Part shown: one piece after another, positions 3,166 through 61,400 of the stretch
Layout: each line of letters starts with the position of its first letter
How positions within the stretch are numbered: the first letter of the stretch is position 1
DNA from: Squalus acanthias
Taxonomy: Eukaryota
Direction: 5' to 3'
DNA: 64,000 nt
Assembly (NCBI GenBank): GCA_030390025.1
Contig: CM059449.1
Span: 15,748,001 to 15,812,000 of the forward strand
Translations under genes and position numbers: made by a program
Notes under the pieces: generated by a model
Databases searched by the model: none
Told to the model about the DNA's origin: nothing
Seen by the model: only the letters and a program-made list of their open reading frames with translations

Positions 3166-3168
3166 AAT

Positions 3169-5476: not shown

Positions 5477-5775
5477 AATCATAGAGTCATACAGCACAGA
5501 AGGAGGTCATTCGACCCAATCTGCATGTGCCGGCTCTCTGAAAGGGCTACTAATTAGTCCCACTCCCCCCTGCTCTTTCCCCATATCCCTGAAATATTTC
5601 CCTTTTTAAGTATTTATCCAATTCCCTTTTGAAAGTTATTACTGAATGTGCTTCCACGGCCCTTTCAGGCAGTGTATTCCAGATCACAACAACTCACTGA
5701 GTAAATAAAAATTCTCCTCATCTCCCCTTGGCGTTTCTTTGCCAGTATCTTAAATCTGTGTCCACTGGTTACCGA
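5477..5775 (-). mobile_element. CR1 LINE 3' fragment
   Basis: CR1 3' UTR and tail with C-terminal ORF2 remnant. Confidence 0.8.
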
Positions 5776-5931
5776 CAGAATAATCAGACAGACCAATACT
5801 GAACTCTTGGTCAACGGATTATTCCTGGTAGATAAGAAAATTAACCAGATTATCAATTAAAATCAAATTAAATCGAAGGAGTAAGCGTTCGGAGTTTATT
5901 AAAAGTGACAGGTTGCTCACGTTTCTTTCTG

Positions 5932-6104
5932 TCACCCGCCTGTTTCATGGATCTCTGAGTAGAGCGGATCTGGACTGAAGCAAAAGAGGACATCAGAAAA
6001 TTTAGTCATCCAAAAGAATAAAATACATTAAAGAAAAGGAAACTGGCTTTTTTTTAAAAAGTAGATCAATGTAAACAGTTACCTGGTGGGTTGCTGAAGA
6101 GCGA
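5932..6104 (-). CDS. Two cytoplasmic-tail exons (6104-6083 and 5974-5932)
   Basis: 22-nt exon between ctcctcacag| and AG|GTAACT, then acceptor ttttgcttcag|. In frame they read VALQQPTSPDPLYSEIHETGG*. Confidence 0.72.
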
Positions 6105-24035: not shown

Positions 24036-25429
24036 TGACAGAAACATCCACGACTCTCTGCATCCTATCCCGTGGTCAGTTACGTACCCAGGTTACAGGT
24101 GAAGCCATGAATCTACCCCGCGTGTGAGTATCTGCGCGAACTGTCCTTGAGAGAGAATGCGAGTGTGTGTGTGTGTGTGTGTGTGTGTGAGCGAGAGAGA
24201 GACAGAACCATGTGCGAGAGAGATAACTGCGGTTATATATACAGCTTGCAATTCATTTTTTTTCCATTCCCTCACATCCGGACTCTGACTCAGGTTCACT
24301 CTCCCACTGCATTACTCAAATATTCCTGTCTGTACAATACCTGAATATCTTTTCTGAAATGATATCGCCGCCGAAAGGGGGAATGAATTGGGCTGCAGTT
24401 ACCTGGGCATTCGCTATGTTCTCCTGTAAGCTTATGTCTGACACATCAGGTCCATTCAGGAATATGGGGTGGATTTTCAAATTTGTGCCTGGGCGTAAAA
24501 CTGGCGTTGCGGAGCGGCCGACTGTTATTGAAACGGACTGATTTTAATTTCCATTATTTCATACTGAATTTAATGAAATATTGTATGTCTTAATTAGATA
24601 TTAAATACCCATAGCGATGTCCTCCCATCTATTTTTTTTCTTATTTATATGTGTATCTGGTTAAATCTTATTCCGATATCCCATAGTTGCTGATCACAGC
24701 ACAAGATTGTGGATTTCACCCATTTTATATTCATGACCAGCTCGCCCGCAATTCAAAAAACATCAGGTTTGTGCGGACATTCTCATAGACGCGAGATTAA
24801 CCATCTTAATATCTCAGCGCCGTGATAGTGAATTATGTCCTGGTAATATAATCAATCTCGCAGTTAAGCAGGGCTCGCCACAGTGAAGCTAACACTTTCG
24901 AGGTTGCTTATTTTGAATTGAGGCATTTAGGTGAAGAACCAATCGCCCATGGCGTAGGACAGCATCAAGGTTGGAAATAGTGGGAGGGAAGACGAGTTCA
25001 ATCAAGAAGTGATGGATAGGAATAGGAAAAGAGAGAGAGAGAGAAATGGGTTCCAATCGTGCGTGTGTGTGAGAGAGAGAAAGAGAGACTGAGGAAGACA
25101 GAGAGAGATAGAGAGAGCTAAACGTGAGAGACTGATCAGCTCTCGGGTAACGAGGTCTACTGTATCTGGTCCAGGAGAGCACAATATCTGTTGCTCCCTG
25201 AAGTATATATTGCTCTAGTACTCTGCCTGATAGGGTGGTAGATACATAATCAATAGTAGCCTTCAAAAGGGAATTGGACAAATAATTGATGAAGAAAAAG
25301 ATTGCAGGGATATGGGGAAAGAGAGAGGGGAGTGGGACTAACTGGATTGCTCTTCGAACGAGCCGGCGCAGACTCGATGGGCTGAATCGCCTCCATCTCT
25401 GCTGTACTATTCTATGATTGTATGATAAT

Positions 25430-26012
25430 GGCCCGTATTTTCCGCTCGCAGGCCTCCCACGGGCGGAGGCCTGCGATCTGGAAAATTTGTGCCCTTACCT
25501 GAGGGCTCCCAGGAGGCGCACAGTTGCGATGCTGGGCGTCTCTAAACTGCCGATGTGCAGGGCCCACGTATCCCAGAGGCGCAGGTAGGACGCAGAGTCC
25601 CTGGGATCACGTCCGCCATGGAGAGCCAATCAAAGAAGGGAATCTCCCTTCATACATTTGACAGGAAGACCTGTCAAATATATGAATGGAGATCACCCCC
25701 GTAAACTTTAAATACATTTTTAAAAAATTCACATTTTTAAAATGACTTGAAAGTACAATAAATTAATTATTTTAAACAAAACTTAAAAAAATTTCAAAAA
25801 AATAATTAAAGTTTTTTACAGGGCTAAAAATAAACTTACCTTTTTTAAAGTATTTTTAAATGATAAATCAGTGGATATTTAAAAAAAAAACTTTTTTCAA
25901 CTCTTATCCTGGTAAAAGCATGCCTTACCAGGCGCAAGAATTATAAGGGTTTTCTGCGGGCGGAGGGACTCCAAAAACGGAACTCCCCATTCGCAGAGGC
26001 CCTTCTCCGGGG
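25430..26012. mobile_element. Third, right-truncated copy of the same MITE family
   Basis: Starts ggcccgtattttcc, has the same internal motifs, and ends at the deletion junction. Confidence 0.7.
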
Positions 26013-28569
26013 CAGCTGGAGTGCAGACGAACAAATCGGGTATGTAGCACAATGACTTGGGCTATTTTTGTTATTTTTAAACCTACTGACCTCTGGTTTA
26101 CTTTTCCAGGTAGATTATCATGTAAAAAGTTCTCTCAGTTGGATGTAAAAATCTAAAGATGAAACGAGGTTGGACGGCCTCAACTTTTCTTCTTGAAGAT
26201 GTGGGGTAGATTCTCAACTTGCCACACAGGTGTAAAGCACAGGTGCAGCCCATCCCAAACGCCAGTTTTACGCACAGACGCGGCAAGTTGAAAATCGAAA
26301 TTCAATAGAGCCGGGACTAAAATATCAGTTATAATTCAACAGAAAGCAAACCAAGAAAGGCATGAAATGAAACCTGACAGTCCCAGAATTCAAACACCTG
26401 CACACACAGAAAGACACACTCACACGGACTCTCGCAAATACATATAGCCACACACAAATAAGCAGGTGCATGCACAAACATATATTGGGAATGGAAGCAG
26501 AGTGGTTATGTTACTGGACTAGTAATCCATCTAGACCTGGACTTATGATCCGTGCGACGTGAATTCAAACCCCACCACAGCAACTAGAGCAATGTAAATT
26601 TAATTATATAAATCTGGAATAAAAACCTAGCATCAGTAATGGTAACATGAAACTATCGGATTGTCGTAAATACCCATCTAGTTCACTAATATCCCTTAGG
26701 GAGGAAATCTGCCGTCCTTTCCTGGTCTGGCCTATATGTGACTCCAGAACGATAGCAATGTGGTTGACTCTTACCTGTCCTCTAAAATGGCCACTCAGTT
26801 GTAAAAAGCCGCTACGAAAAACAATGTGGGAGTGCCTTGACTGCAGCGGTTCAAAAAGGCGGCTCTCCACCACCTTCTCAAGGGCAACTAGGGATGGGCA
26901 ATAAATGCCGGCCTTGCCAGCGACGCCCACATCCCATGAAAGAATAAAAAAGCAGGGAGATACACAGGAACATTAAAATAGACCCCAAGATAGGGGCACC
27001 CAGGCAAACAAACGCACACATGCAAAAATACACCTACTTTGATAAGTCGAGATAAGGAGGAAATCTGAAGCCGTAACAGAAAATGCTGGATATGCAAAGT
27101 AGGTCAGTCAGCACCTGGAGGAGAAAACACAGGGTAACCGGTGGGCTGAGACTTTGCCTTCGAACGGAAAGTGCTCCTGAACAGTTGTTCCCAAATGTTA
27201 ATGTGACTTTCCCAGATGCTGACTGACCCACTGCTCCTGAATTCATTAAGTGTGAATTGTTCTAAATGCATGAATTTTAACATTATAATGTTGTGTTTAT
27301 TAGGTCGACTGACCCGTTGCTCCTGAATTCACTAAGTGTGGCTTGTGAATCGCTTCTAATGCATGGATTTTAACAATACTCGTAACGATGTGTTAATTAG
27401 GTTGACTATTTCCCTTGCTTGTTACTTAAATCGTGCAATCTTTGACACGCTGAAATATATTCAAAAGGACAGGAATATTTAGGATGGCGCGATCTATCCT
27501 ATTTAATGAAACAATATTTGATAGGTGGAGTCATATTCTAATTATATGTAGAATGTTCACTGATTTGAATAATATTCCATTGAAACTGCACAACATCTGG
27601 TGCGCTGGGTTTGAGGCCCTACGCTATATTCAGTTTACAATATTTTATTCAACACTGAAACACTTTCATCTCAATAGAGAGAGGGAGATGAGAAGTTGCA
27701 AACGTCACGCTGAATCTTCAAGAGAGCAATCAAACTGAGCGCCCTGTGAAGCGAGCAGCGGTGCTGTACGCTTCGGTGAAGTAAGCGGAGCCGATACATT
27801 CCACCCCAATGATGAGACGTGCCCCCCCCCCTCCCCCCACCCCCCACCCCACCACCGATGGACAAGTAGTGGAATTTCCGCAGAGTTGTCCCGATCTCCC
27901 GCCGTAACTTGGGCGGAAGCTCGGGGGTTCTGTGGGATCTTCAACGGCGGATGATTGGTGAACTCTCCATGAGAATTTCCAGGCGAATGTTTTGTCCTCT
28001 AACTTAGTGAGTGAGGTTTATCCACACATAATTCAGTAACAAGGGCTTGGAATCTCCAATACTTTAACATTAGTCTCTTTAGTGTTAGTTGTGAACATTT
28101 AACACATTTTTATGAAATGTATTAGTCCCCTATTTTTAGGGGAGTGTTATCCTCGAAAATAAACAGATTTATGCCACTATTAAAATGAAAACCAACATGT
28201 TGAGCATTCATACACGTTACTGTTCACTCAGCCTTGTCTCATCACATAACTCCTTACATTTCATCATAATCCTATAGAGTTTTTGATATTTTCGTCATAA
28301 AAGTTCTTCTCAGTTGACCCATGTCAGGTTGTATGTTGATTTTCCGTTGTACCTTCTTTAAAATTAATGTTTTATGTTGAACTCAAGGGGGGCGGGCGAA
28401 ATGACTTCTGCGGGTTCTCCCGCTCTCCTGTGGTAATGTCGGCGGAAGATCGGCGGAACTCAGAAGAAGCGCGTAATAGCTAAAGCGGTGTTCTGCCGAA
28501 CTTCCAGCGTACTCATTGCACGAGATCGGCAGAACCACCTCCCCCAGAAGTGAATACTTGGAAGGACGT

Positions 28570-31831: not shown

Positions 31832-32637
31832 TGTAGGATAGGCTGTATTTGTATGATTTAGTAAAACATTTTTGTATCACTATAACATGTGAAATTGTAT
31901 GTTAAAAGCCTAAAAGCCTGTATAAAATGGCCAATGGCTGAGTGAAAAGCAGGATGGGGAAATTGTGCCAACCTGACTGAAGCTCGCTCTGTTTTCAATT
32001 ACTGAAGTAATGGAATGCAATATTAAGTTTATGGAGACTGTCAGGGAGGTGGCATTCAGTAATGTGATAGAAAAGAGATACAAGTTGGAGAGGAGAGAGT
32101 GATAAGAGAAGCACCCCTCAGTGATACGACTATAAAATGGACAGATTGTTTAGACAACATCTTGGGAAATGGTCTTTGGAAAGAGAATATCTAAAGATAA
32201 AAGAGCCCTTTGATATGCACAAAGCGAGATCTAGTGGGATCAACAAGTTCCTAAAACAATTACCAGGTGTCGGATAGCTGTTTGCAGTCACGTAGGAAGA
32301 GGGAAAAAGGTGTATAAAGATACAGATTTTGAACACTGAAGGCAGCGCGAACCAGAGTTAAAGAAGCTTCGATCGACAGAACACAGCAAGAAACCAGAGA
32401 AGCGAGCTTCAGTCGAGAGAAAGCAGCAAGAGGATAAAGAGAGCACGCCACAGTCGCTCGGAAGGAACGCCGAGGCTCAAATGAACAAGACTGTGACTAT
32501 CTCCTTGTTAAGTATGACTTCTTTGTACTGGATGTTTAATGCTTAATAAACCTGTTTTACTTATACACAATATACCTGTACCCAGAGTGGTCTGTGTGGT
32601 CATGGACAAATTATTATAAGAGCTTTTGGAAGCTGCA
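31832..32637 (+). promoter_or_regulatory. 5' LTR (~806 bp)
   Basis: Begins TGTAGG where the L2 fragment is interrupted and ends ...GCTGCA 3 nt before the PBS. TATAAA at ~32313, AATAAA at 32545. No second LTR is available to confirm the boundaries. Confidence 0.75.
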
Positions 32638-32640
32638 ATT

Positions 32641-32658
32641 TGGCGCCCAACGTGAGGC
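32641..32658 (+). promoter_or_regulatory. Primer-binding site, tRNA-Lys(CUU; Lys1,2)
   Basis: TGGCGCCCAACGTGAGGC matches the Lys1,2 PBS TGGCGCCCAACGTGGGGC at 17/18 positions. Confidence 0.9.
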
Positions 32659-32797
32659 TGTGACTATTAACTGAAACCAGGTCTATTGTGCATAAAACAG
32701 GCGTTTGGATTTTCGCTTGGATTTTCGTCTGATCAACGAGGATCCTCGTGGAAAGTTAGGTTTTCTAAGAGATAGTGTCTCTTTAACGTACAAAAGA

Positions 32798-35085
32798 ATG
32801 TCGAGTGAGAATTTCCTTGTAGATTATAAAGCGAAGTTAATGAAGAAGTGCGATGAGGCACAGTTACAGATGTTAGTAGAATGTCTAACAAAGCATGCGA
32901 AAGTACTTTTCGAGGACGTTGTGGCGTTCATTGAAAGACAAGTTAAGGAAAAGAAATGTAAGCCGGATAGGGCAGCGCAGCTAATGGCCTATGCCGCAGT
33001 GTATTGTGTAGAACAAGATAAAGAAACCTTCCTAGAGATGGAAGGTGAACAGGATAAATTAGAAAAAGACAAACTACGGCTTATAGAAGAGAATCTAACG
33101 TTACAGGGTGAGAAATTAAAATGGGAAAAAGAAGCTGTAGAATTAAACAATAAACAAGAAGTCATTCAAGGACAAATCGGTGCTGCAACAGAAATAATAC
33201 AACAGCAGATTATTAATGCAGTTCATGCCGGCGCTGCAATACTATATCTTGAGGAGGCAAAAAGCCAAATAGACTTCTTAACAAAAGTTAATGACCGTCT
33301 GATCAGCCAATTAAATGATTCAGAGGGGCCCTCAGAGAGGCTCTTCAGCGCCCCCACAGGGAGTTAGAACACAAGCATTGTCAGAATACTATACAACAGT
33401 TAGAAAATCAGTTGGCTAAACAGTGGGCTGTAATAGCGGCAGTCACGGGAGTAGACCCCCCACGAGTTATGATAAACAATGCGAGGGGTTAAGCGAGGAG
33501 CTATATTCTCCCTTGATATTTCCTTCCCGTGAGATCCCCATCTCATATGCCACCATCGACCTGGCTGAAAGACCACCAGCCTGTGCTAATAAAAATATAA
33601 TCGAAACCTCAGCGGACGAACTTGCGGCCGTTAGAGCTCCGGTTAATGTCCTGACTCGTATCCAAGTGATTCCTAACGCACCACCAGCACCAGTAGCTGA
33701 CGGTGACCCGGGACAGGCAGCACAACCAGTGGCACCTCCAGGGATACTGTAGGCAGGTACTTATGAAAGGTCCCAGCCCCTAAACTGTGCAGAACTACAG
33801 GCATGTGTCCAACAATTCGGACCAGCTAACCCACAAACATGCCCTATAGAGCTAAGGCAACGTATAGTGGTATTCCGGAATTACCATCCGGAATTACCAT
33901 CCGGAATTACCAAGTTCCCGATGTTCCCGATGGTCGGGGAGTCCAGAACCAGGGGTCACAGTCTAAGGATAAGGGGTAAGCCATTTAGGACAGAAATGAG
34001 GAGGAATTTCTTCACCCAGAGAGTGGTGAACCTGTGGAATTCTCTGCCACAGAAGGCAGTAGAGGCCAATTCATAAAATAGATTCAAGAAGGAGTTGGAT
34101 ATATTTCTTAAGGCTAAAGGGATCAAGGGATATGGGGAGAAAGCAGGGACAGGGTACTGAATTTGGATGATCAGCCATGATCGCATTGAATGGTGGAGCA
34201 GGCTAGAGGGGCCGAATGGCCTACTCCTGCTCCTATCTTCTATGATTCTATGATTCTATCCTAATTTTGAGGACAGTGATATGAAGAATGTTGTACTGTC
34301 TGCTCTGACTCCGGACATATGGACTAGTCTCCCCTTTTTGGCCTTTAATGTGGGGAACACCCTGAATGACTTAGTCACATATATACAAACAACTTTAGGC
34401 TTGGATACTATTGATTTGGTCCTGAAATTAAACCAAACCCAACTTGGGCCTCATGAGACTCCTGCTGCTTTCGGAGATCGGTTGTACACTATTTATGAAA
34501 TGACGCAAGCACGCCCCGATGCTGATGCATTGAACGGGAAGGATGAAGCAGGATTGAAGAAAATATATTTAAAAGAATATTCAGACCTCACTGCGAGCAG
34601 CTTTAGGGCACATGGTCAGCCACAACTTGCAATGGACAGCCCTTTTAAGAGACGCTACTTCTGCATGGGCCTATGCTAAAATTCAGGTCCAGGCATCAAC
34701 AACAGAAACGCCAGTAAGTGTAGTTGAGGGACCCCAGGCTTCTCTAGTATCAAACCCCCGTAGACAATCGTTCATGTGTTACAATTGCGGTAAGATGGGA
34801 CACTTTGCGAAACATTGCCGAAGTCCTAGACAAACAGGCTCGGGAGGTGGGAGAAATAACATTAATTACCCGAGATATGGTCCGTCCCGTTCACCTCCTC
34901 TAGTGGATAGCAGGTTGGACGCTATGGACTCACGTATTGAAAGAATGTCATGTATGATGCAAACACTTACAGGAACCCAGATGTCGGGGAGTCCTGTGGC
35001 CCCAACTATGAGTTCGAATCCGACTCCCGCTATGAGCTCATTATTCCCGCCCCCACCACTGCAACAACCCAATGGCCCACAATGA
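32798..35085 (+). pseudogene. gag: gag (N-terminal coiled coil, capsid-like region, CCHC zinc knuckle), disrupted
   Basis: ORF pieces 32705-33367, 33423-33752, 34281-34679 and 34612-35085. Knuckle CYNCGKMGHFAKHC. Frameshifts, stops and a CR1 insert at ~33915-34257. Confidence 0.85.
33915..34257 (+). mobile_element. CR1 3' fragment inserted in gag
   Basis: ESRTRGHSLRIRGKPF and (tatgattc)n tail. Gag reads ...VFRNYH|PNFEDSDMK across it. Confidence 0.9.
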
Positions 35086-38000
35086 CGGGATTCGGCCCCA
35101 CTGGCCTGGTCTGAAGTGGGGTTCAGACGAGATGGCCATGGTCGTCCAGTTGTCTCAGCTTTTCTGCCTGGGGGCCGACAGCAGACTATGCTAGTAGACA
35201 CTGGGTCATCTGTTACAATCCTGCATTCCCCAGACCCGGAACGCCAACTGGATATAGGCAAAAGTAGCTTTGTCATAACGGGAGTCTCCGGGGCACAAGC
35301 ACCCGTATATCCAGGGGAAGAACTTAATGTTTCCCTCGAGGAATTCCCCGTAAAAATTACCGATCCATTGTACATGTGTATGACAAACAGAATGGGGATA
35401 CTTGGGAATGATACCCTAAGGGGAATGACAGCTATTATAGATTACAATCAGAATTGTTTATGGGTTGAGTCTAAACCGGGAGATGTAGTTCAATTCTCAG
35501 ATGCCCACTCGGTGTTTGCTATAAAGAAGCCTGAGCAGATAGCACTGCTGGCACATTCTCTGCCTGCTGTTAACTCCTTAGTGACCAAACATGCAGCAGC
35601 CTTTGCTAAATTTATACACAACTGTGGGAGGATGGAAAGGGAGACGCGAATTAATGGGCCACCCCATCGCGCATGTAAACAATATCCGATTCCCCGAGAA
35701 AGTATTCTGTATTCGCGAACAGTCATTGCCTCATTGGAAGAACAGGGAGTACTGCGCAGGTGTTCTTTTACTACCAATTCCCCTGCATGGCCAGTTAGGA
35801 AACCGGATGAATCTTGGAGGCTTACTATTGATTACCATGCCTTAAATAAAGCTTCCCCACGTCAAAGCCCGACTGTTATTCAAGCCCCTTCGCTACTGAC
35901 ATCCATACCCCCCAAGGCCACTGTTTTCTCCAGCTTAGACATAGCGAATGGTTTTTGGAGTATTCCAGTAGCTCAGGAGGACCAGTACAAATTTGCTTTC
36001 ACTTTTGAAGGGCAGGTCTACACATTTACGTGTCTACCGCAAGGGTTTCATAACTCGCCATCGATCTTTCATCAGTACATGACACGAGCAGTTAAAGACT
36101 TTTCTAAACCTTCAGCCCTTCTGCCGGATGTTGATGATCTACTTTTGGCTACTGAAACAATGGAAGAACACCTAGAACTCCTAGATGAGCTGATAGGACT
36201 AGTACAAAAGGCAGGGCTGAAAATAAATCCAAAAAAGGTTCAGCTGGCAAAAGATGAGGTTACCTTTCTGGGAGTAAAAATTTCAGCGACTGGCCTTCGT
36301 CCGGACCACAAGAAGATAGAGACTTTTCAGCGACTCCCATTACCAATTTCAAAGACTGCATTGCGATCCTTTTTAGGTTTGGTCAGATACCAGCGAAATT
36401 TTATTCCGAACTTTGCAGACTTGGCTAAACCTTTGTATGATCTTTTAAAGGGAGATACGGAAGAGATACAACCCGTATGGGAAGACCACCATACTGCTGC
36501 GGTTAGTGCTTTGAAACAAGCCACGATACGGATCACGGTTAGTTCTTTCATCTTGAAGTAGGCTCCATCCCTCCCAGCCTAACTGCCGTTTTGAGTCAGA
36601 AATAGGCAATCAGCGAGACACTACGCCCTATCGCATATGCCTCACGTATACTACGAGGGGTGGAAAGTACATTCTCAGCGTGTGAACGTCATCTGTTGGC
36701 CACATTTTGGGCAGTCAATCATTTCACCTACATTACCGGACTGCAGAAGGTCATTTTGCATTCACCACGCACGCCCCTTAATCTGCTGTTAAAACCAAGT
36801 GAGACCAAGGTATCCTCTCAGCGAATAAGTAAATGGACACTCGAATTGTTACAGCGTGACCTAGACATTATGCCTAAACGAACCACGCTGTTACCCCTTA
36901 TAGAAACATAGAAACATAGAAACATAGAAAATAGGTACAGGAGTAGACCATTCGGTCCTTCGAGCCTGCACCGCCATTCAATGCGTTCATGGCTGAACAT
37001 GCTACCTCAGTACCCCATTCCTGCTTTTTCGCCATACCCCTTGATCCCCTTAGTTGTGAGTGTTATATCTAACTCTGAGTGTTATATCTAACTTATGCTC
37101 GCCTATGAGGGAAGCCCACACCAGTGTCCATTACCAGTGCTAGATATGGAACCAAATCCAGTAAAGGCTCACACCATACCCGGAGCTCGAAATATGTACG
37201 TTGACGGGTCATCATACCATGTAGTTGGCCATCCTAGAACTGGATGTGCCCTTATTGATATCGACGCTCATGGTTGGTCGGAGGGATTTCAAGTTCCCGT
37301 CCACTCCTCACTACAGGCAGAACTGATTGCTGTAATTCTAGCCGTACATTACACGACTATGGATGAAATAAATATCTGGTCCGACAGCAGTTACGTTTGT
37401 AACACAGTTATGGCTCTTCCCCTCTATAATACAAATGAGTTTTGCTCATCAGATGGTAAATCTTTATTACATTCTGGTCTCCTCCGTAAGCTATGGAAAG
37501 TGCTCCAGGAACGAGTCGCCTCTTGTCACGTGGGTAAGGTAGCAGCCCATCAGAAAGATTCATCCCCCCATTCCCGAGGTAACCAAATGGCCGATCGCTT
37601 TGCTAAGGAGGCGGCCGAGAACGGAAAGTTACTACCTTGGTGGGTGATGAATGATACTCAGATACCCGTAGTGGGGACGGTGACTAAGATAAAAACCATA
37701 GATCTTCTGGCCCGACAGGATTCATATGCTCCTTATGCACAGGTAATAGCCTGGCATCAACAGGGATGCCCGCTACCAGCACCTAGCCTATGGGCAGACT
37801 CCACTGTAATGCAACAAGGTGTAGATAAAAACCCTTCCCTACTAAATGATCAGGAATAAAGAGGGAGACCTAGTAGTTTGTATTCCTCCTCAGTTAAAGG
37901 AAGACATTCTGGCTCTCTTTCATTCTCACCCGACGGCGGGACATTACTCAGCGGCCTCTACACTACAAAAGTTATTACCTGTTTGCTGCTGGCCTGGAAT

Positions 38001-38961
38001 GGAAGAGTATGTGGAACAATATGTTAATCGTTGCCTGCCATGCCTACAGAGAAACCCCCCTTCATGTTCAAATCGCGCTTTACTTAGGTCACAGCCCCCT
38101 CCTGAGGGACCATGGACACACTTACAGATTGACTTTATTGGTCCGCTAACAAAATCCAAGGAAAACTATGAGTACGCACTTGTGGTAATCGATCAGTTCA
38201 CTAAATGGATAAAGGCTTTTCCCACGAGAAATAACACAGCATGCACCGCAGCTCGAATTCTCCTGAGTGAGGTGTTCTGTAGGTGGGGATTGCCATTACA
38301 AGTGGATAGCGATCAGGGTCCACACTTTAAGGGGGCGGTTTTCACAACTCTGCAAGAAATGTTACAGATAAAACTTAAATTGCACATTGCGCACCATCCA
38401 CAATCATCAGGGATTGTGGAGAGGGGAAATCGAACTTTAAAGACAATGTTGCAGAACTTGTGTACAGAACACCCCACTCAGTGGACTGACATGTTGCCTT
38501 TATGTCTAATGGCAATACGCTCTACCCCACACGGAACTACGAGGGTAAGTCCATATGAGGCTATGACTGGGAGACAAATGCAGATACCAGGACATGTAAC
38601 ATTAGGAAATAACACACCATTAAAACTACAACCATGTAGCCAAAAATGGTTACAAACCTTGATAGATCATATGGATAAGGTAAACAAGCTGGTGGCCATT
38701 AACATAGGCAAATCGCGTGAACAAATCAAGCGATATTATGATAAAAGGGTAAAACCATTTGAGTATGATGTTGGAGACAGAGTAATGTTACAAAATTTCT
38801 CTTCAAAAAAACACTCATTCGAGATAAAATGGACAGGCCCTCATACCATAGTAGATAAATTAAATCCAGCTGTGTATCTACTGAATGTCCCATATGGTCC
38901 GAAGGGAGAACCCAAACTGAAATGGTTCCATGTCAATCAGATGAAAACTGTTAAGAATTAG
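35086..38961 (+). pseudogene. pol: pol: protease-RT-degenerate RNase H tether-RNase H-integrase, disrupted
   Basis: Protease LVDTGS. RT NSPAWPVRKPD..WRLTIDY, LDIANGFWSIP, LPQGFHNSP, DVDD (YxDD mutated). Tether PIAYASR. RNase H YVDGS/AELIA/WSDSSY/GNQMAD. Integrase H..H..C..C, IDFIG, DSDQG, VERGN, WTGPH, FHVNQMK. Confidence 0.93.
36902..37096 (-). mobile_element. CR1 3' fragment inserted in pol (TSD CTTAT)
   Basis: (atagaaac)n tail. Removing 195 nt restores in-frame TTLLPLMLAYEG. Confidence 0.9.
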
Positions 38962-38994
38962 GATGTTACATTTTGGTTTACCCACAGGTTAAAG

Positions 38995-40648
38995 ATGTGG
39001 GTCTGTATGCTGATACGGATAATTGGATGTGCAGTGAGCTCTCCGGAGGTAACAAAAACTTTTGACATTACCATTAACATCTGTACACTGGACGAAGGAG
39101 GCGAATGCGCCCTACTCCCCATCTATGGAACGGAACCTCGAATTGTTGGCGGACATAAGCAATCAAAGAACTATAACGGATCATCCGAGACGTATGAGGG
39201 GGATGTTCCAGTTTGGATGAGAAATAGTACAAAAGATAATATAACAACACCATACGCAACGGGTTGTGGTATTTTACAAGAAATGGTGTATAATTGGGAA
39301 GTAAAAGAAGGATATGGTGTGTGTATCAGGTGCGGAATAAAGAACAGGAAAGGCCCAAATGTGTGGAAATTCCTGAAGAAAAATAATGGAATCTGGGAAC
39401 AGGTACAAGAATGAAATCAGGGACCAGTAGCTTCGGAAATAAGGGAAATATACAATTATGCTGGCCTCGGTGGTGGAATAAACATACCAGCCAGTATTCT
39501 TGTATTGCGTCGAATATTATCATGGGCTTTAAAAATCAGGATGATGATTGGCCTCCTATTCCCGAATATGATGGAAAGATTACCTCAGCAGGATATGAGA
39601 TTCCCAGAGACGATATAGAGATCACCGCGGCAGAACATAAACCCTTTATGATGACTTTTAAACATTGGGAAGATTATAGGGATTTTGAGAATAAATATAA
39701 CAGAATAATAGAATTCGAAAATGCAACAACTGGATGTGTAAGGGACGATGGGTGTGCCTATAGTTTTAAGCTTACACCCTATGAGAAAGCAAGCCATTCA
39801 GAACCACGAGAGGGTGTACCCGAGGAACAATGTCCCCAACTAACACCGGGACATGTGAACGGTCTTGTAATTATACCCACCTATAAAGCAGTGCATCATC
39901 AAGTAATACCAGAAGTGGCCCCTGTTATCCTAAATTTAACAGAAGTAATACTTCCAAAGTGGTGCCCTGACTAAACAGCACAACTAACTCAGAGAATGCT
40001 GCAGCAGGTTTTTAATCAGTACTGGGAAAAGGCGACCTTATCTATAAGCATAGAGAAAACAGAAGATACCTTCCGTCACGAGTTTAGTAAAACTGAAGAG
40101 AGCAGCCAGGGAAAGAGTAGACAGAAAAGAGGATTGATAAACGATGGACTCACAGGTTTCAACACAGTAACATCGATAATTAACTCAATGGACTCCGCAG
40201 ATTACAAAAACAATTACAAACGGTAAGGGAAAAGTTGAAGGAGATACTTACGGAAAACAGCATAGTAAGCGGGGAGCTAAGGAAGGATCAGGTAATGACC
40301 ATCCACCTGCAGGACATCATACATGAAATAGAGGATCATGCCAAAAGAATTAATGATCTGATTAGAGAAAACAGAAATGCCTCTGATCAAGCAGCCAACA
40401 ATGACGTAAGCATTACGTACGGGAATTGGCTGATTGAACAAACTAGGGAAAACCTTCAGACCATCAATCAGGGACGTCTCCACACATGGGTCACTAATAA
40501 ACACTTATCAGGGCTATCCAGTTATTACGATGATGCAGAACTACGTAAGATCAGGAGTTTGATTAGGATCCACCCTGATAAACATGAATGCCACGAGGTA
40601 GGGAGTCAAAGGTTGATGGGACTAATACTACAGCCCATGTTTTCCTGA
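38995..40648 (+). pseudogene. env: env-like class I fusion glycoprotein, disrupted and 3'-truncated (no TM anchor)
   Basis: Acceptor ttttggtttacccacag at ~38987 just before the ATG. Signal-like MWVCMLIRIIGCAVS, RQKR furin site at 40119-40130, hydrophobic GLINDGLTGFNTVTSII, then heptad-rich helices. Frameshifts at ~39410 and ~40195, stop at 39972. Confidence 0.8.
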
Positions 40649-41794
40649 ACTGTGCTGGCCGGGTGCTGGCTGCGTTCAGGCTGCCCAATTTGCAAAAGCG
40701 CCTCAATGAGGTCTTAGGCCCACTATTTGCATAGCGCAATGCGTCTAACATCTGTTTCAGTTATGAACCCTGGACACCTCTTTTACAGCCTTTACCAATA
40801 TGGCGCTCGGCACACTTCTGGCGTGTAATGAGTGCCCGCTCAACACCCATACTAAAGGCGCGGCTCCACCGTAATTTTTAGCCCACATGTTTCCCAGATG
40901 TATCCACCATTCGTCATAAGTATATACAATTGGTGAAAGTGTGTTCCAGAATACAACGAAGTCGATTTTAGTCTTCATCGCCCAGGTTTTTAGTGTTACT
41001 TGGGCAGAGCACAGAAAGGAAAATGTGGTGCAGAGGATCGTACGCTGATAACAGAACCTGCTTGATTTTCCTTCCATTCATTTCAATAGAGATTAAGTTT
41101 GGGTTATGTTACTGGTGTGTGATCCGCCCTACCAGATTTTCCTTTCTGCTCCCCGAGTCCCTGCCCAGGTGATGCCGAATGCTGGATAGTACAGACGAAA
41201 ATCACCCCAATGTTAGATATGACGACAAAAATGGAAAATGTTGCATAACAGCATTGCTTACACAATCTTTGCAGCAGAACAATTTATTTCATTACAATCA
41301 TTAACACAATTCAGTTTATGGATCTATATCTTACTCAGAGTTTCACCAGAGGGTCTGTAGTCGGCAGTGAGTTTGGTCTGGAGCAAAGTGCACTGGTATC
41401 TCGATCCTCGCCCATCTCCGGCTCCTCCCTCCCTCTCTCTCCCTCCTCCCACTACCAACACTCCATGGACCTTCACCCTCCCGGCCAAAGTTCAATTATT
41501 CCCCTCTGTCCTCTAACCAAGTTTGTCCTTTACACTGCTTGAGGTTTTGTTTCCCCGTGTAAAAGTTGCCGGGACATAGACTAGCGTTTTAAGAAGGCGG
41601 CTCACCACCACATTCTCGAGGGCAATTAGGGATGGGCAATAAATGCTGGAATTGCCAGCGACGCCCAGATCCCATAAAAACGAATACAAAAAAGGATAAT
41701 AATAATTCCCTGAGTATTGCCGTGAACTTCATCGGGAAATCGCTGAACTGAGGCTGTTCGGCAGCGCAGTAACATCCAAACTGAAAGCGGTGGG

Positions 41795-44700
41795 AAAAGA
41801 AGGAGACTGACTCCTGCCCGGGATGTAGAGAGGAGTTTCCGGAAAGAAACCGCAGAGCCAGTTGGGCCTTAGCGAATCTGGCTAGAAAGCAAGAAAATTA
41901 ACCCTGAATCTGAAAGAGAAGGAAAGTAAACTTCACTGTGAGGAACATCAGGAAGAACTGAAGCTGTTTTGTGAAACTAACAAGAAATTGATCTGTTACA
42001 CTTGTAGAGATGCGCGGGAACACAGAGAGCAGCGCTTCATGCCCATTAAAGAAGCTGTTGGAATCTACAAGGTAAAAGGGAACAGATTTGCTCACCTGAT
42101 TATTTTATCACATTATCACGTTTATTCTGTGATTTTCTCTCCCAATCCCAGGGTCAGGTGAAAATCTTCCTTAGATTCTCTCACAGTGAAGAAATCAGCG
42201 GCTCTAGAAACTGAGCGGGGGCAGAAACAGAAGATTTCCGAAGTTAGGGTAAAGTCTCCCTGTGCTGATTTTCTGGGATGTCAGTTAGTTTTGTCCTTTG
42301 TCGCGGTACTCATTATTTTCACATTTCATTTGGTAGGAACAGTCGAGCAGTCTGCAGACCCGCATCACATCTGGGTTTACTAAAATGCACCAGATTCTCA
42401 GTGAGAAAGAGCAGCGTTTAATCCGAGATCTCAGGGAACAAGAGGAGAGGATTCTAGAAACAACGGAGAAAAATCTTCGGGAAATTCAAGAGAATTTAAA
42501 TTCTATTCAGGAAAAGCTCTCAAAGTTGCAAAAACAGATGGAGCAAACAGACGGACTGATATTTCTGAAGGTGAGGATTATATTTCAGTTTAGTTCCATT
42601 TACTTGGGTGTAATTTCTGCTATCCGGATATAGACGCTCAGTCTCTGTCAACTCAGATTGGTGTTTTATTTATTTCAGGAGGAAGCTTGTCAGAAGATGA
42701 GGTAGGACATGCTCTTTACTGTAACTCTGCACCGTTTGGTAAAATAACTCAGAAAAGTGTTTATGGTCAATTTATAACCAATTGTTTGGTATTTGCAGGA
42801 TTAGCGATGACGGTAATGAACTGACATTAGCAGATGCTGCACTGTCTATCGAAAAATTCAAAGGCCCTTTAAAGTACGCAGATGCCATTAACTCCGGTAA
42901 AACTCATATAGGTTCCTTAGTCCTGATTTATATCTAATTTATTTGTAGAACTAATCAGATTATATCAAAGACAGTATGTTTTAATACTAAGTAGCTGCAA
43001 AGCAATGCGGTTAACAACGGCCCTGAATAGAATTCATGTGTTATTCACGCACAAATCCACCTTCTACAAAGCCTCGCCTTCAATTAGTCAGCTGAAAATT
43101 CCAACTCTCCCAACATGACCAATACAGAGACCCTCGGATGAACCACAGCCTCCAGAATACTTTTGCAGAATTCAGCAAGAGGTAATCCACCCCACCCCGC
43201 ACCCCTTCCCAGCGGAACCTACCCTCCTCTACAGTGCGGCAGCCACCTTGTGTACCAAACTCATGTGCAGGGCTAGGGTTAGGGCAGGAAGCCTAAGCAA
43301 GCCTGGGAGGAGGAGAGGCGAGGGGTCTGGTGTCAGCTGGTGCTCACTGTGGACCTGGAGGTCAAGCACTGGATTGCAATCCACTTCCTGAGAGCTGGGA
43401 GGAGTCGGCGGCAGAGAATAAAGAGAGCGGGAGCCGGGGAATGCGCCGAGCTGCCTGGAGTCGGCAGCAGATACAAATCCGGCGAGTTCCAAAAGAACAG
43501 GCGGCAATTTATATTCGGCAAAAAAAATTCAAAGAGTGACGTCACAGGACAGCAGGTAAGTGATTGGTTGATGAGTATTACCTTTGTCTTTTTCTCTCTC
43601 CGTTCGATCAGCGTGTTAGTTCTTAGTCTATTAAATAGAGGCATGGCAGGGCAGCTCAGTCCCGTCGAGTGCACATCCTATGCCATGTGGAAAGTCCTGG
43701 ACGTTTCACGTAGACTGGACGACCACATTTGCAGGAAGTGTCACCAGCAATAGCAACTAGAGATCCGGGTTGCGGAACTTTAGTGGCAGCTGGAGTAACT
43801 GCGGTGCATCTGCGAGGCTGAGAGTTACGTGGATAAAACGTTTCAGGAGGTGGTCACTCCGCAGCTTAAGAGTATGCAGGCAGAGAGGGAATGAGTGTGC
43901 GCCAGATAGAAGGGGAGGACCAGGCAAGTAGTGCAGGAGTCCCCGGAGTGCATCTCGTTCTCCAACCAGTATTCTGTTCTGAGTACTGGTGAGGGCTATG
44001 GTTCCTCTGGGGAGTGCAGCCAGAGACAAATCCATGGCACCACGGGTGGCTCAGCTGCACAGGTGGGGAGGAAAAAGAGTGGAAGAGCAATAGCGGTAGG
44101 GGATTCGATAGTTAGGGGAGCAGACAGGCGTTTCTGTGGACGCAGGCGTGACTCCAGGATGGTATGTTGCCTCCCTGGTGCCAGGGTCAAGGATGTTTCT
44201 GACTGGCTGCAGAACACTCTGAGGGGGGATGGTGAACAGCCAGAGGTCGGTGTCCATATCGGTAGCAACGACATAGGCAGAAAGAGGGATGAGGTCCTGC
44301 AGGCAGAGTTTAGGGAGCTAGGAGAGAGATTAGAAAGCAGGACTTCAAAGGTAGTAATCTCCGGATTACTCCCGGTGCCACGTGCTAGTGAGTACAGGAA
44401 TAGGGGGATAGAACAGATGAATGCGTGGCTGAAGAGATGGTGCAGGAGGCGGGGCTTTAGATTCCTGAGGCATTGGGACTGTTTCGGGGGCAGGTGGGAC
44501 CTGTACAAGCCGGACGGATTACACCTCAACAGAGCTGGGACCAATATTCTCACAGAGAGCTTTGGTAGTGCTGTTGGAGAGGGTTTAAACTAGCTTGGCA
44601 GGGGATGGGCACCAGCATATAGGAGTAGAAAATAGGAATAAGGTGCATAAGAGTGAGTGTGTTGGATAGCACTAAAGAAGAAAGTAGTACTAGAGGCGGA

Positions 44701-55339: not shown

Positions 55340-58300
55340 GGGAGAGAGAAAATCGGAGGGGGGAGAGAGAGAGAGATTGGTGGAGAAGGAGAGAGAGAGA
55401 CTTGGGAGAGAGAGAGAGAGAGAGAGACTGGGAGAGAGCGAGAGAGAGAGAGACTGGGAGAGAGCGAGAGAGCGACTTTGGGCGAGAGAGAGACAGACTG
55501 GGAAGAGAGAGACTGGGAAGAGAGAGATTGGGGAGAGAGAAAGAGACTGTAGAGAGAGGGAGACTGGGGAGAGAGCGAGAGAGACTGGGGAGAGAGAGAC
55601 TGAGGGGAGAGTGAGAGAGACAGGGAAGAGAGAGATTGGAGAGAGAGAGAGACTGGGGAGAGAGGGAGACTGGGGAGACAGCGAGAGAGACTGGGGGAGG
55701 GAAAGACGGGAAGAGAGAGAGACTGGGGAGAGAAAGAGAGAGACTGGGGGAGAGATAGAGACTGGGAGAGAGCGAGAGAGCGACTGGGGGAGAGAGAGAG
55801 AGACTGGAGAGAGAGAGACTGGGGGTGAGAGTGAGAGAGAGACTGGGAGAGAGCGACTGGGGGAGAGAGAGAGAGACTGGGTAGAGAGAGAGACTGGGGG
55901 AGAGAGTGAGAGAGAGACTGGGAGAGAGCAAGAGAGAGAGAGACTGGGAGAGAGAGAGAGTCTTGGAGGAGAGAGAGAGACTTGGGGCAGAGAGAGAGAG
56001 ACATGGGGGAGAGAGAGAGAGAGACTAGGTGGGAGATGGAGAGAGAGAGTGGGAGAGAGCGAGAGAGCGACTGGGGGAGAGAGAGAAAGAGAGACTGGGG
56101 AGAGAGTGAGAGAGAGACTGGGGAGAGAGAGAGTCTTGGAGGAGAGTGAGATAGAGCGAGAGAGCGACTGGGGGAGAGAGAGAAAGAGAGACTGGGGAGA
56201 GAGTGAGAGAGAGACTGGAGAGAGAGAGACGGGGGTGAGAGTGAGAGAGAGAGACTGGGAGAGAGCGAGAGAGAGAGTCTTGGAGGAGAGAGAGAGACTT
56301 GGGGGAGAGAGAGAGAGACTGGGGAGAGAGTGAGAGAGAGACTGGGAGAGAGCGAGAGAGAGAGTCTTGGAGGAGAGAGAGAGAGACTTGGGGGAGAGAG
56401 AGAGAGACTGGGGAGAGAAAGAGAGAGACTGGGGGAGAGAGAGAGAGAGCGAGAGAGCGACTGGGGGAGAGAGAGAAAGAGAGACAGGGGAGAGAGTGAG
56501 AGAGAGACTGGGGGAGAGAGAGAGTCTTGGAGGAGACAGCGAGACTTGGGGGAGAGAGAGAGAGACTTGGGGGGAGAGAGAGAGAGAGAGACTGGGTGGG
56601 AGATGGAGAGTTCTAGGAGAGAAAGAGAGAGACTCCGGGAGAAGGACAGACTGGGGAGAGAGAGAGACTGGGGAAATAGTGAGAGAGACTGGGGAGAGAA
56701 AGACGGAGAGAGAGAGAGAGAGAGAGAGACGGAGAGAAAGAGAGAGAGAGACTGGGGAGAGAAAGAGAGAGACTGGGGGAGAGAGAGAGAGAGTGGGAGA
56801 GAGCGAGAGAGCGACTTTGGGCGAGAGAGAGACAGACTGGGAAGAGAGAGACTGGGAAGAGAGAGATTGGGGAGAGAGAAAGAGACTGGGGAGAGAGGGA
56901 GACTGGTGAGAGAGCGAGAGAGACTTGGGGGAGAGAGAGAGAGAGAGAGAGAGAGACTGGGAGAGAGAGAGAGACTGGGAGAGAGCGAGAGAGAGAGAGA
57001 CTGGGAGAGAGCGAGAGAGCGACTTTGGGAGAGAGAGAGACAGACTGGGAAGAGAGAGACTGGGAAGAGAGAGATTGGGGAGAGAGAAAGAGACTGGGGA
57101 GAGAGCGAGACTGGTGAGAGAGCGAGAGAGACTTGGGGGAGAGAGAGAGAGAGAGAGAGAGAGACTGGGAGAGAGAGAGAGACTGGGAGAGAGCGAGAGA
57201 GCGACTTTGGGCGAGAGAGAGACAGACTGGGAAGAGAGAGACTGGGAAGAGAGAGATTGGGGAGAGAGAAAGAGACTGGGGAGAGAGGGAGACTGGGGAG
57301 AGAGCGAGAGAGACTGGGGAGAGAGAGACTGAGGGGAGAGTGAGAGAGACTGGGAAGAGAGAGATTGGGGAGAGAGAGAGACTGGGGAGAGAGGGAGACT
57401 GGGGAGACAGCGAGAGAGACTGGGGGAGGGAAAGACGGGGAGAGAGAGAGACTGGGGAGAGAAAGAGGGAGACTGGGGGAGAGATAGAGACTGGGAGAGA
57501 GCGAGAGAGCGACTGGGGGAGAGCGAGAGAGACTGGAGAGAGAGAGACTGGGGGTGAGATTGAGAGAGAGACTGGGAGAGAGCGAGAGAGCGACTGGGGG
57601 AGAGAGAGAGACTGGTGAGAGAGAGACTGGGGGAGAGAGTGAGAGAGAGACTGGGAGAGAGCGAGAGAGAGAGACTGGGAGAGAGAGAGAGAGAGCCTTG
57701 GGGGAGAGAGAGAGAGACTTGGGGGAGAGAGAGAGAATTGGGGGAGGGAGAGAGGGAGACTGATGGAGAGAGTGGGTGATTGGGGAGAGAGAGAGACTGG
57801 GCAGAGAGAGAGACTGGGGAGAAAGCGAAAGAGATGGGAAGAGATAGATTGGGGAGAGACAGAAACTGGGGGAGAGAAAGACAGGGAGAAAGAGAGAGAG
57901 AGACGGGGAGAGAGAGAGAGACTGGGTGGGAGATGGAGAATTCTAGGAGAGAAAGAGAGAGACTCCGGGAGAGGGACAGACTGGGGAGAGAGAGAGACTG
58001 GGGAAAGAGTGAGAGAGACTGGGGAGAGAAAGACGGAGAGAGAGAGAGAGACGGGGATAGAGAGAGAGAGACTGGGGAGAGAAAGAGAGAGACTGGGGGA
58101 GAGAGAGAGAGAGAGTGGGAGAGAGCGAGAGAGCGACTGGGGGAGAGAGATAAATAGAGACTGGGAAGAGAGTGAGAGAGAGACTGGGGGAGAGAGAGAG
58201 TCTTGGAGGAGAGAGAGAGACTTGTGGGAGAGAGAGAGAGAGCTGGGGGAGAGAGAGAGAGAGACTGGGTGGGAGATGGAGAGTTCTAGGAGAGAAAGAG

Positions 58301-58375
58301 AGAGACTCCGGGAGAGGGACAGACTGGGGAGAGAGAGAGACTGGGGAAATAGTGAGAGAGACTGGGGAGAGAAAG

Positions 58376-58406
<31 letters not shown>

Positions 58407-61400
58407 CGGAGAGAGAGAGAGAGACTGGGGAGAGTAAGAGAGAGACTGGGGGAGAGAGAGAGGGAGAGACGGGGAGAGAGCGAGAGAGCGACTGGGGGAG
58501 AGAGAGAAAGAGAGACTGGGGAGAGAGTGAGAGAGAGACTGGGGAGAGAGAGAGCGAGCGGGGGAGAGAGAGAGTCTTGGAGGAGAGAGAGAGACTTGGG
58601 GAAGAGAGAGACACCTGGGGGAAGAGAGAGAGACTGATGGAGAGAGGGAGTGACTGGGGTGAGAGAGAGACTGGGGGAGAGAGAGCGACTGGGGGGAAAT
58701 CGAAAGAGATGGGAAGAGATAGATTGGGGTAGAGAGAGAAATTGGGAGAGAGAAAGACGGGGAGAAAGAGAGAGAGAAGGAGAGAGAGAGAGAGACTGGG
58801 GTGGGAGATGGAGAGATCCTAGGAGAGAAAGAGAGAGACTGCGGGAGAGGGAGAGACTGGGGAGAGAGAGAGACTGGGGAAAGAGTAAAAGAGACTGGGG
58901 AGAGAAAGACGGAGAGAGAGAGAGAGAGAGACGGGGAGAGAGAGAGAGACTAGGGAGAGAAAGAGAGAGACTTGGGGGAGAGAGAGAGAGCGACTGATTG
59001 AGAGAGTGAGTGACTGGGGAGAGAGAGAGACTGGGGAGAGAGAGAGACTGGGGAGAGAGAGAAAGAGATGGGAAGAGATAGATTGGTGGAGAGAGAGAGA
59101 CTGGGGGAGAGAGCGAGAGAGACTGGGGAGAGAAAGACGGGGGAGAGTGAGAGACTGGGGTGGGAGATGGAGAGAAACTAGGAGAGAGAGAGAGACTGCG
59201 GGAGAGAGAGACTGGGGAGAGAGAGAAACTGGGGAGAGAGCGAGAGAGACCGGAGGGAGAGAAAGGCGGGGAGAGAGAGAGAGACTGGGGAGAGGAAGAG
59301 AGAGACTGGGGAAGAGAGTGTGAGAGAGACTGGGAGAGAGCGAGAGAGAGACTGGGGTGAGAGAGAGAGAGAGAGACTGGGGAGAGAGAGACTGGGGTAG
59401 AGAGAGAGACTGGGGAGAGATAGAGAGAGGCTGGGAGAGAGCGAGAGAGAGACTGGGGGAGAGAGAGAGACTTGGAGCAGAGAGAGAGAGACTTGGGGGA
59501 GAGAGAGAGAGTTTTGGGGGAGAGAGAGAGAGACTTGGGGGAGAGAGAGAGCGACTGGGGGGAGAGAGAGACTGGGGAGAGAGAGACTGGGGAGAGAGAG
59601 AAAAAGATGGGAAGCGATAGATTGAGGGAGAAAGGGAGACTGGTGGAGAGTGCGACAGAGACTGGCGGAGAGAAAGATGGGGAGAGAGAGAGACTGGGGA
59701 GAGAGAAAGAGACTGGGGTAGGAGATGGAGAGATACTGGGAGAGAGAGAGACTGGGGGAGAGAGAGAGAGAGACTGGGGGTGAGAGAGAGAGAGAGACTT
59801 GGAGAGAGAGAGACTGGGGGTGAGAGAGAGAGAGACTGGGAGAGAGAGCGAGAGAGAGACTTGGAGAGAGTGAGAGAGAGAGACTTGGAGAGAGTGAGAG
59901 AGAGACTGGGGGAGAGAAAGGCGGGGAGAGAGAGAGAGACTGGGGAGAGGAAGAGGGAGACTGGGGAAGAGAGTGTGAGAGAGACTGGGAGAGAGCGAGA
60001 GAGAGACTGGGGTGAGAGAGAGAGAGAGACTGGGGAGAGAGAGACTGGGGTAGAGAGAGAGACTGGGGAGAGATAGAGAGAGGCTGGGAGAGAGCGAGAG
60101 AGAGACTGGGAGAGAGAGAGAGACTTGGAGCAGAGAGAGAGAGAGACTTGGGGGAGAGAGAGAGAGTTTTGGGGGAGAGAGAGAGAGACTTGGGGGAGAG
60201 AGAGAGCGACTGGGGGGAGAGAGAGACTGGGGAGAGAGAGACTGGGGAGAGAGAGAAAAAGATGGGAAGCGATAGATTGAGGGAGACAGGGAGACTGGTG
60301 GAGAGTGTGACAGAGACTGGCGGAGAGAAAGATGGGGAAAGAGAGAGACTGGGGAGAGAGAAAGAGACTGGGGTAGGAGATGGAGAGATACTGGGAGAGA
60401 GAGAGACTGGGGGAGAGAGAGAGAGAGACTGGGGGTGAGAGAGAGAGAGAGAGACTTGGAGAGAGAGAGACTGGGGGTGAGAGAGAGAGAGACTGGGAGA
60501 GAGAGCGAGAGAGAGACTTGGAGAGAGTGAGAGAGAGACTGGGGGAGAGAAAGGCGGGGAGAGAGAGAGAGACTGGGGAGAGGAAGAGAGAGACTGGGGA
60601 AGAGAGTGTGAGAGAGACTGGGAGAGAGCGAGAGAGAGACTGGGGTGAGAGAGAGAGAGAGACTGGGAGAGAGAGCCTTGGAGAGAGAGAGAGAGAGAGA
60701 CTGGGGGTGAGAGAGAGAGAGACTTGGAGAGAGAGAGACTGGGGGTGAGAGAGAGAGAGACTGGGAGAGAGAGCGAGAGAGAGACTTGGAGAGAGTGAGA
60801 GAGAGACTGGGGGAGAGAGAGACCGGGAGAGAGAGCGAGAGAGAGACTTGGAGAGAGAGAGAGAGAGAGACTGGGGGTGAGAGAGAGAGAGAGACTTGGA
60901 GAGAGAGAGAGACTGGGGGTGTGAGAGAGAGAGACTGGGAGAGAGAGCGAGAGAGAGACTTGGAGAGAGAGAGAGAGAGAGACTGGGGGTGAGAGAGAGA
61001 GAGACTGGGAGAGAGAGCGAGAGAGAGACTTGGAGAGAGAGAGAGAGAGACTGGGGGTGAAAGAGAGAGAGACTGGGAGAGAGAGCGAGAGAGAGACTTG
61101 GAGAGAGAGAGAGAGACTGGGGAGAGAGAGAGAGAGAGAGAGACTGGGGGTGAGAGAGAGAGAGACTGGGAGAGAGAGCGAGAGAGAGACTTGGAGAGAG
61201 AGAGAGAGACTGGGGGTGAGAGAGAGAGAGACTGGGAGAGAGAGCGAGAGAGAGACTTGGAGAGAGAGAGAGAGAGAGAGACTGGGGTGAGAGAGAGAGA
61301 GACTTGGAGAGAGAGAGAGAGAGACTGGGGTTGAGAGAGAGAGAGACTGGGAGAGAGAGAGAGAGAGAGAGAGAGACTGGGGGTGAGAGAGAGAGAGACT

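Follow-up and report, generated by a model that had tools for sequence, protein, structure and literature searches.

A probable SnRV-related endogenous retrovirus in an elasmobranch genome carries a predicted F-type envelope protein

Introduction

Snakehead retrovirus (SnRV) and its relatives form a clade that Xu et al. (2018) named 'clade Huo' and that is described as spanning all major vertebrate groups (PMC6001957). SnRV-related endogenous retroviruses (ERVs) have been reported from the elephant shark as CmiERV lineage I (Han 2015, PMC4422223). SnRV itself is given as 10,688 nt in length (PMC12193657), and a listing of aquatic retroviruses assigns readthrough of a TAG stop codon to SnRV and of TGA to others (PMC13517186).

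Membership in the lokiretroviruses is defined by reverse transcriptase (RT) phylogeny, in which the Loki clade is sister to the canonical retroviruses (Wang and Han 2020, PMC7947760). In the available text of that paper, lokiretroviruses are recorded in 0 of 6 chondrichthyan genomes (Fig. S1), Chiloscyllium punctatum is scored as negative, and no similarity was found between Loki and canonical Env proteins. Fernandez et al. (2024, PMC11468914) unite foamy virus Env with the F proteins of paramyxoviruses and pneumoviruses as 'class Ib' fusogens and, in the available text, assign orthoretrovirus Env to another subclass. Our literature search found no report of shark lokiretroviruses and no statement of SnRV or WDSV Env as F-type; its scope did not extend to Calcraft et al. 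2024 (Cell) or Hart et al. 1996, which may bear on the latter point.

A sequence-only reading of the DNA analysed here, a stretch of 64,000 nucleotides that we call the window, had assigned an element within it to the lokiretroviruses and had proposed that their host range may extend to sharks. We find that the element is not a lokiretrovirus and is likely an SnRV-related shark ERV, and that SnRV-related ERVs of cartilaginous fish are already in print. That reading had overlooked the SnRV clade, which has a CCHC knuckle and gag-pol readthrough and was already known from cartilaginous fish (Han 2015, PMC4422223).

Results

Organization of the element

The proposed layout of LTR, CCHC gag, in-frame TGA, protease and RT, tether, RNase H, integrase (IN) and env was confirmed by Pfam and by alignment of genomic copies (Table 1). 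Pfam E values not given in the table are 1e-4 for zf-CCHC, 4e-4 for RVP, 9e-31 for RVT_1, 1e-16 for Integrase_H2C2 and 7e-13 for rve, and the tether family is RT_RNaseH. The IN had been called GPY/F-type; its C-terminal SH3/GPY-F part scores weakly (E=0.028). As had been claimed, a dead first RNase H is followed by a second one: the acidic motif at the catalytic site of Ty3-type RNase H is missing from the tether, and the second domain is intact at its catalytic residues. This dual RNase H is a trait common to all retroviruses, lokiretroviruses included. The RT catalytic motif is changed in the window copy. The primer-binding site likewise agrees with the tRNA-Lys assignment made earlier, and tRNA-Lys would prime reverse transcription.

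Table 1. Coordinates of the features of the element within the window
Feature	Positions	Strand	Remarks
5' LTR	31832..32637	+	806 nt, TG..CA; aligns with the 5' and 3' ends of other copies
Primer-binding site (PBS)	32641..32658	+	17/18 nt match to host tRNA-Lys(CTT) 3' end
gag	32798..35085	+	N-terminal coiled coil, capsid region, CCHC knuckle ~34777-34818; ends in in-frame TGA 35083-35085
Secondary insertion in gag	33890..34257	+	High-copy LINE-type 3' fragment; missing from non-duplicate copies
pol: protease + reverse transcriptase	35086..36545	+	Pfam RVP, RVT_1; frameshift near 36540
Tether (degenerate first RNase H)	36546..36901	+	PF17917 E=2e-13
Secondary insertion in pol	36902..37091	-	Inverted LINE-type 3' fragment; missing even from segmental duplicate
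Second RNase H	37092..37859	+	PF00075 (RNase_H) E=6e-17; D-E-D-D kept; frameshift before IN
Integrase	37846..38961	+	HHCC, DDE core, C-terminal SH3/GPY-F-like part
Candidate splice acceptor + env start	38962..38997	+	AG 38986-87, ATG 38995; splicing inferred
env, predicted F-type class I fusion protein	38995..40632	+	Signal peptide, furin site 40119-40130, fusion peptide, heptad repeat

Fifteen copies were examined at the gag-pol junction, and the in-frame TGA is kept in all 11 in which the junction could be aligned. By analogy with SnRV and epsilon-like viruses, Gag-Pol would be produced by readthrough of this conserved codon. An in-frame stop is also present in SnRV gag, and the Loki loci L050 and L051 have an in-frame gag-TGA-pol arrangement. 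The Gag of a related host family (d9b) matches SnRV Gag at E=1e-11 versus E=0.11 for Loki Gag; the CCHC knuckle is present in SnRV Gag and absent from L051, the one Loki gag checked.

At the start of env, 13 of 14 aligned copies retain the acceptor-like AG, and all 14 retain the ATG. The earlier claim was of a spliced env with a furin site; the furin site stands, followed by a long ectodomain, and expression from a spliced RNA would be suggested by the candidate acceptor. No leader-env joint was seen in the contigs of four runs (their RNA nature guessed, the element covered at 85-99%), a result that is uninformative on splicing or expression.

State of the copy and its genomic family

We mapped inserts and truncation against nine other genomic copies. 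In the window copy gag, pol and env all carry frameshifts or stops, and there are two LINE inserts. The insert in pol, placed earlier at 36902-37096, is real and ends at 37091; the gag insert, which may be a CR1 fragment, is additional to that description. The copy ends at ~40632; other copies continue with a further ~760 nt of env, a polypurine tract and a 3' LTR. At a distance of 1.4 Mb there is a 97% duplicate of the entire locus and its flanks, with the same truncation and gag insert but no pol insert. The window element is a dead provirus, cut short at its 3' end, from an ERV present in many copies in an elasmobranch.

Searches of the 3.7 Gb genome returned 113 matches for IN (110 of 17,603 candidates scored), 102 for env (93 of 11,279) and 43 for the LTR (40 of 1,154). 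These counts are lower bounds that also include more distant families, and the family comprises at least ~100 matches. Among the 40 scored LTR candidates, 38 are near-full-length at 90-100% identity. The two LTRs differ by 1.6-2.4% in all three two-LTR copies measured; a mammalian rate would turn this divergence into ~4-6 My and the rate that Han (2015) assumed for sharks into ~36-55 My, and we claim no absolute date. A 4-bp target duplication is present in two of these three copies, and integration would generate a duplication of this length.

When the two main subfamilies are compared, env gives dN/dS values of 0.16-0.29 and IN values of 0.13-0.19; values within a subfamily are 0.34-0.8. This pattern fits infectious spread and then decay. 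Because env was under purifying selection between subfamilies, the family probably spread at least partly by reinfection.

A TRIM exon adjoins the element; its best 120 of 559 matches are all from sharks and rays, with up to 90% identity to a sawshark protein. The apparent shark host of the sequence-only reading is, by this exon, an elasmobranch and probably a shark.

Placement of the reverse transcriptase

The SnRV reference (L070) is whole; its length agrees with the published figure, and by eye its RT equals the SnRV row of Dataset S2 of the Loki paper. The Loki references are three loci only (L050-L052), picked by the Loki RT motif. By eye their RT, gag and env resemble published lokiretroviruses, they match PF00523 at E=0.002, and they fall sister to all canonical retroviruses, in agreement with the publication. 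Viral contigs served as foamy, gamma, epsilon, delta and lentivirus references, with labels taken in part from comparison of RT text with Dataset S2. Because peptide look-ups pairing database Pols with the alignments of the Loki paper gave 0 matches, references received their labels from visual comparison with Dataset S2 and from tree position.

The window RT shares 59% identity with a Xenopus Pol (P0001), 46% with SnRV, 36-37% with Loki, 34-38% with foamy viruses and 33-36% with the epsilonretroviruses WDSV and WEHV-1, which form a separate clade. Loki RTs are 69-93% identical among themselves, and the window RT motif differs from theirs. Trees were inferred from 57 of 84 rows (27 near-duplicate or partial rows dropped) and, under a mixture model, from 36 rows, both without Odin, ERV-L/ERV-S, fish foamy-like ERVs and CmiERV. 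In both, the canonical retroviruses including the window form a clade (100/96 and 100/99), with Loki (100/100) outside. Within this clade, the window RT forms a group with SnRV and with Pols from frog and coelacanth (94/94 for 57 rows, 88/84 for 36 rows). This grouping with SnRV is of moderate strength (88-94) and never starred, and SnRV has a long branch in every tree. Forced monophyly of the host elements and Loki is rejected (AU p=0.006).

The RT tree upholds the earlier view that the element is a retrovirus and neither Gypsy nor foamy. The RT does not fall within Ty3/Gypsy (Metaviridae), and the RNase H layout is also against that assignment. A foamy affinity hinted at by the top PDB RT matches was ruled out by the trees, in which the RT lies outside the Spumaretrovirinae as represented there (fish foamy-like ERVs excluded); the Gag-Pol layout and CCHC knuckle are also unlike foamy viruses.

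A search of the Squalus acanthias genome with Loki RT protein gave a best match of 40% (144 of 16,899 candidates scored, which does not prove absence), and the 12 best matches inspected are all nearest to SnRV-group references. This result agrees with the published survey of chondrichthyan genomes. The Loki RT motif pattern had one match in the genome, outside any RT and attributable to chance. A search of viral contigs for loci related to the window RT found none.

The envelope protein

For a natural open stretch from another copy, the top Atlas matches were PF00523 clusters (0.93, below the recognition threshold and a lead only). A profile of 12 natural host stretches found 54 proteins; ten were looked up, and the eight that could be named come from three sharks, a skate and three frog genera. 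Chiloscyllium punctatum, the species scored as Loki-negative, is among these relatives.

A model of a natural 563-aa stretch (pLDDT 71.7, pTM 0.51) matched hPIV3 F (E=4e-11) and foamy Env 8rm0 (E=7e-7) by Foldseek, as well as henipavirus, NDV and RSV F. Structure comparison gave Z scores of 12.9 (318 aligned, rmsd 14.8) and 9.8 (293 aligned, rmsd 5.4). Among predicted viral proteins, the model matched those of WEHV-1 (E=2e-7) and WDSV (E=1e-6), and feline foamy Env too. The resemblance to paramyxovirus and pneumovirus F that had been claimed from sequence is borne out by comparison of the predicted fold. An SnRV Env model also matches F proteins (E=5e-7), but it was folded on the alignment of the shark family and is not independent.

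A profile of 43 rows (A2) aligned by hhalign with the Envs of Loki (E=3e-13), WDSV (7e-11), SnRV (7e-9) and foamy virus (3e-6), and reached a probability of at most 8% with five gamma and delta Envs. Shuffled controls scored 10-21 versus 74-105 for the real alignments. The Loki-SnRV, Loki-foamy and foamy-SnRV pairs gave no direct match (E 0.3-0.4). With a profile of host copies only, Loki Env scored 34-38 bits, SnRV 1.6 and WDSV 3.8, Loki being the highest-scoring named Env. The Env tree has a star-like shape and drew long-branch warnings, and SnRV, WDSV and foamy virus were not placed from it; on it, window plus Loki is rejected (p=0.002).

A direct BLAST comparison with SnRV Env found nothing, Pfam found no fusion family in the env pieces, a PDB sequence search with the Env profile found nothing significant, and a word-seeded search with the TM part found no homolog among 2,663 candidates. 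Neither of the gamma-type TM motifs, ISD and CX6CC, was found.

On the strength of the model, we predict Env to be an F-type (paramyxovirus/pneumovirus F-like) fusion protein, which would be cut by furin and refold like F to drive membrane fusion. In its resemblance to Mononegavirales F and in its signal peptide, furin site, coiled coil and TM, the family's Env agrees with what is described for Loki Env. Because foamy Env and, by profile and fold, the Envs of SnRV and the walleye epsilonretroviruses are also F-type, such an Env is not a Loki marker. It is most likely the inherited Env of the group and not a sign of Loki ancestry.

Conflicting signal in the tether, RNase H and integrase

What Loki flavour remains appears to lie in the similarity scores of IN and Env. 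The window IN shares 46% identity with Loki and 33% with SnRV; the tether, too, scores higher with Loki than with SnRV. The IN tree is a basal grade in which Loki IN stands beside frog and coelacanth relatives (87/89); topology tests reject window plus SnRV (p=0.0014) and are borderline against window plus Loki (p=0.049; CGIN1 not in the tree). In the tether tree Loki lies outside the canonical retroviruses (91/99), and in the weakly resolved RNase H tree it joins foamy virus and not the window; in neither does the window family group with SnRV. Both Han-lab papers warn that RNase H and IN trees are unreliable.

These data could be accommodated by a mosaic virus, in which an SnRV-like gag-PR-RT backbone is joined to an IN-env 3' half derived from, or donated to, Loki. 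The IN identities, the rejection of window plus SnRV on IN and the top score of Loki among named Envs favour such an origin, and retroviral domain swaps are described as frequent (PMC7947760). However, the Env test rejects window plus Loki, the IN test is borderline against it, RNase H does not group with Loki, and short branches that keep ancestral sequence account for the scores equally well. We regard a mosaic as unlikely, and prefer to read the likeness of IN and Env to Loki as ancestral sequence that would have been retained on short branches.

It is slightly less probable still that the shark, frog and coelacanth elements are a deep canonical lineage of their own, not specially related to SnRV. 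The long SnRV branch, joining support confined to RT, and the basal grade in the tether, RNase H and IN trees point that way, but the similarity of Gag to SnRV, the common CCHC and readthrough layout, the 46% RT identity and the shared Env features around the furin site speak against it. A true lokiretrovirus, which would be the first in cartilaginous fish and new given the published survey (PMC7947760), is highly improbable: the dual RNase H, the F-type Env and the gag-TGA-pol arrangement seen also in L050 and L051 count for it, but the RT motif, identity, trees and AU test are all contrary, as are the CCHC gag and the genome search with Loki RT, and RT placement refutes it provided that L050-L052 are Loki.

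Discussion

We consider it very probable that the locus is a dead provirus whose RT lies inside the canonical retroviruses, likely in a basal group around SnRV, and whose Env is of predicted paramyxovirus-F/foamy type. The Loki membership proposed earlier is contradicted by RT phylogeny, RT and tether both falling on the canonical side, and by the tests on RT and Env; the host extension to sharks falls with it, as the element is not Loki and the genome search found no Loki-type RT among the 144 of 16,899 candidates scored.

The locus by itself is an ordinary dead ERV copy, and its value lies in this correction and in the bridge that its Env provides. The Env family of sharks, skate and frogs ties together four retroviral Env types treated as unrelated in the available text of two papers (PMC7947760, PMC11468914), and an F-like Env is unusable for calling a lokiretrovirus. 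Because the shark and frog Env bridges the Loki, SnRV, walleye epsilonretrovirus and foamy Envs by profile, we propose that the ancestral envelope of retroviruses was of the F type (class Ib), acquired once before Loki and canonical retroviruses split and later replaced by gamma/beta-type Envs, a proposal to which we give even chances. If true, a single origin would overturn the scenario in which Loki Env arose independently, and likewise the view that all orthoretrovirus Envs are class Ia. The origin of retroviral env becomes testable with existing viruses (SnRV, WDSV).

The element resembles SnRV in its RT grouping, in Gag homology with one CCHC knuckle, in a gag-pol of one frame with a stop, in having a tether and RNase H, and in an Env that matches the same profile and has the same features around the furin site. 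Unlike SnRV, the element has TGA in place of TAG, a different primer-site sequence and an IN that is not sister to that of SnRV; an SnRV-type downstream ORF was not seen in the copies viewed, and the front end of the family's Env is shorter. By its published description, CmiERV-I may likewise be close to the window family.

With lokiretroviruses, as described by Wang and Han (2020, PMC7947760), the element shares the dual RNase H, an F-type Env with a furin site, gag-TGA-pol and the IN similarity, but its RT lies outside the Loki clade with another motif, its family's Gag is unrelated by BLAST and has a CCHC knuckle, and its family's Env carries an additional region at the N terminus and does not match PF00523. 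The likeness to foamy Env and F is in the predicted F core, in N-terminal subunit strands that interleave with the C-terminal subunit and in the lack of CX6CC/ISD, whereas identity is 9-14% and the RT, Gag and pol layout are non-foamy. Finally, WDSV and WEHV-1 are alike in Env by profile and fold and in gag-pol readthrough, but their RTs fall in a separate clade and their Envs are much longer.

Genomic setting and age of the pol insert

The truncated env of the window retrovirus is followed about 1.2 kb downstream by a TRIM (B-box) exon, and the element adjoins a TRIM cluster.

Features flanking the endogenous retrovirus
Feature	Window position	Remarks
TRIM (B-box) exon	41750-42071	Shark 'zinc-binding protein A33-like' family
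Large inverted duplication	481-10645 vs 24544-28569	Arms 87-97% complementary
GA-rich satellite	55340-61400	~6 kb

A segmental duplicate of the locus, flanks included, lies at G000:C26:17153500-17170000 (L011, L012) in the same shark genome and is 97% identical. The pol insert of the window copy is missing from this duplicate, and therefore it postdates the segmental duplication.

Primer sites and env in related elements

One window-family copy (L019-L020, G000:C14:30514000-30530900) carries a different Lys-type primer site, which we take to be Lys3-like, suggesting primer switching within the family. The related families at L029-L048, with integrase identities of 54-65%, have primer-site sequences that differ from that of the window family. 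In most of the 10 of these loci that we viewed, env is either absent or reduced to a short C-terminal remnant and the LTR pairs are 95-99% alike, suggesting env-deleted amplification.

Among the database proteins P0002, P0090, and P0076, a frog Pol of the window retrovirus's group runs on into the start of an Env that shares 48% identity with P0090 over this stretch. The front end of P0090 is Ig V-like (Pfam E=0.045). In relatives of the window family, the F core may be preceded by an Ig domain; such a domain is not evident in the window family itself. Annotation also places pieces of this Env family inside host proteins (Niban-like, cadherin, and F-box; P0088, P0096, and P0098), reflecting either mis-annotation or exonisation.

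Comparison with lokiretroviruses

We found no mention of a one-frame gag-TGA-pol arrangement in the parts consulted of the lokiretrovirus paper (Wang and Han 2020, PMC7947760). Three lokiretrovirus reference contigs (L050-L052) were found in a metagenome collection, where they probably represent host DNA, and two of the three loci have gag-TGA-pol in a single frame.
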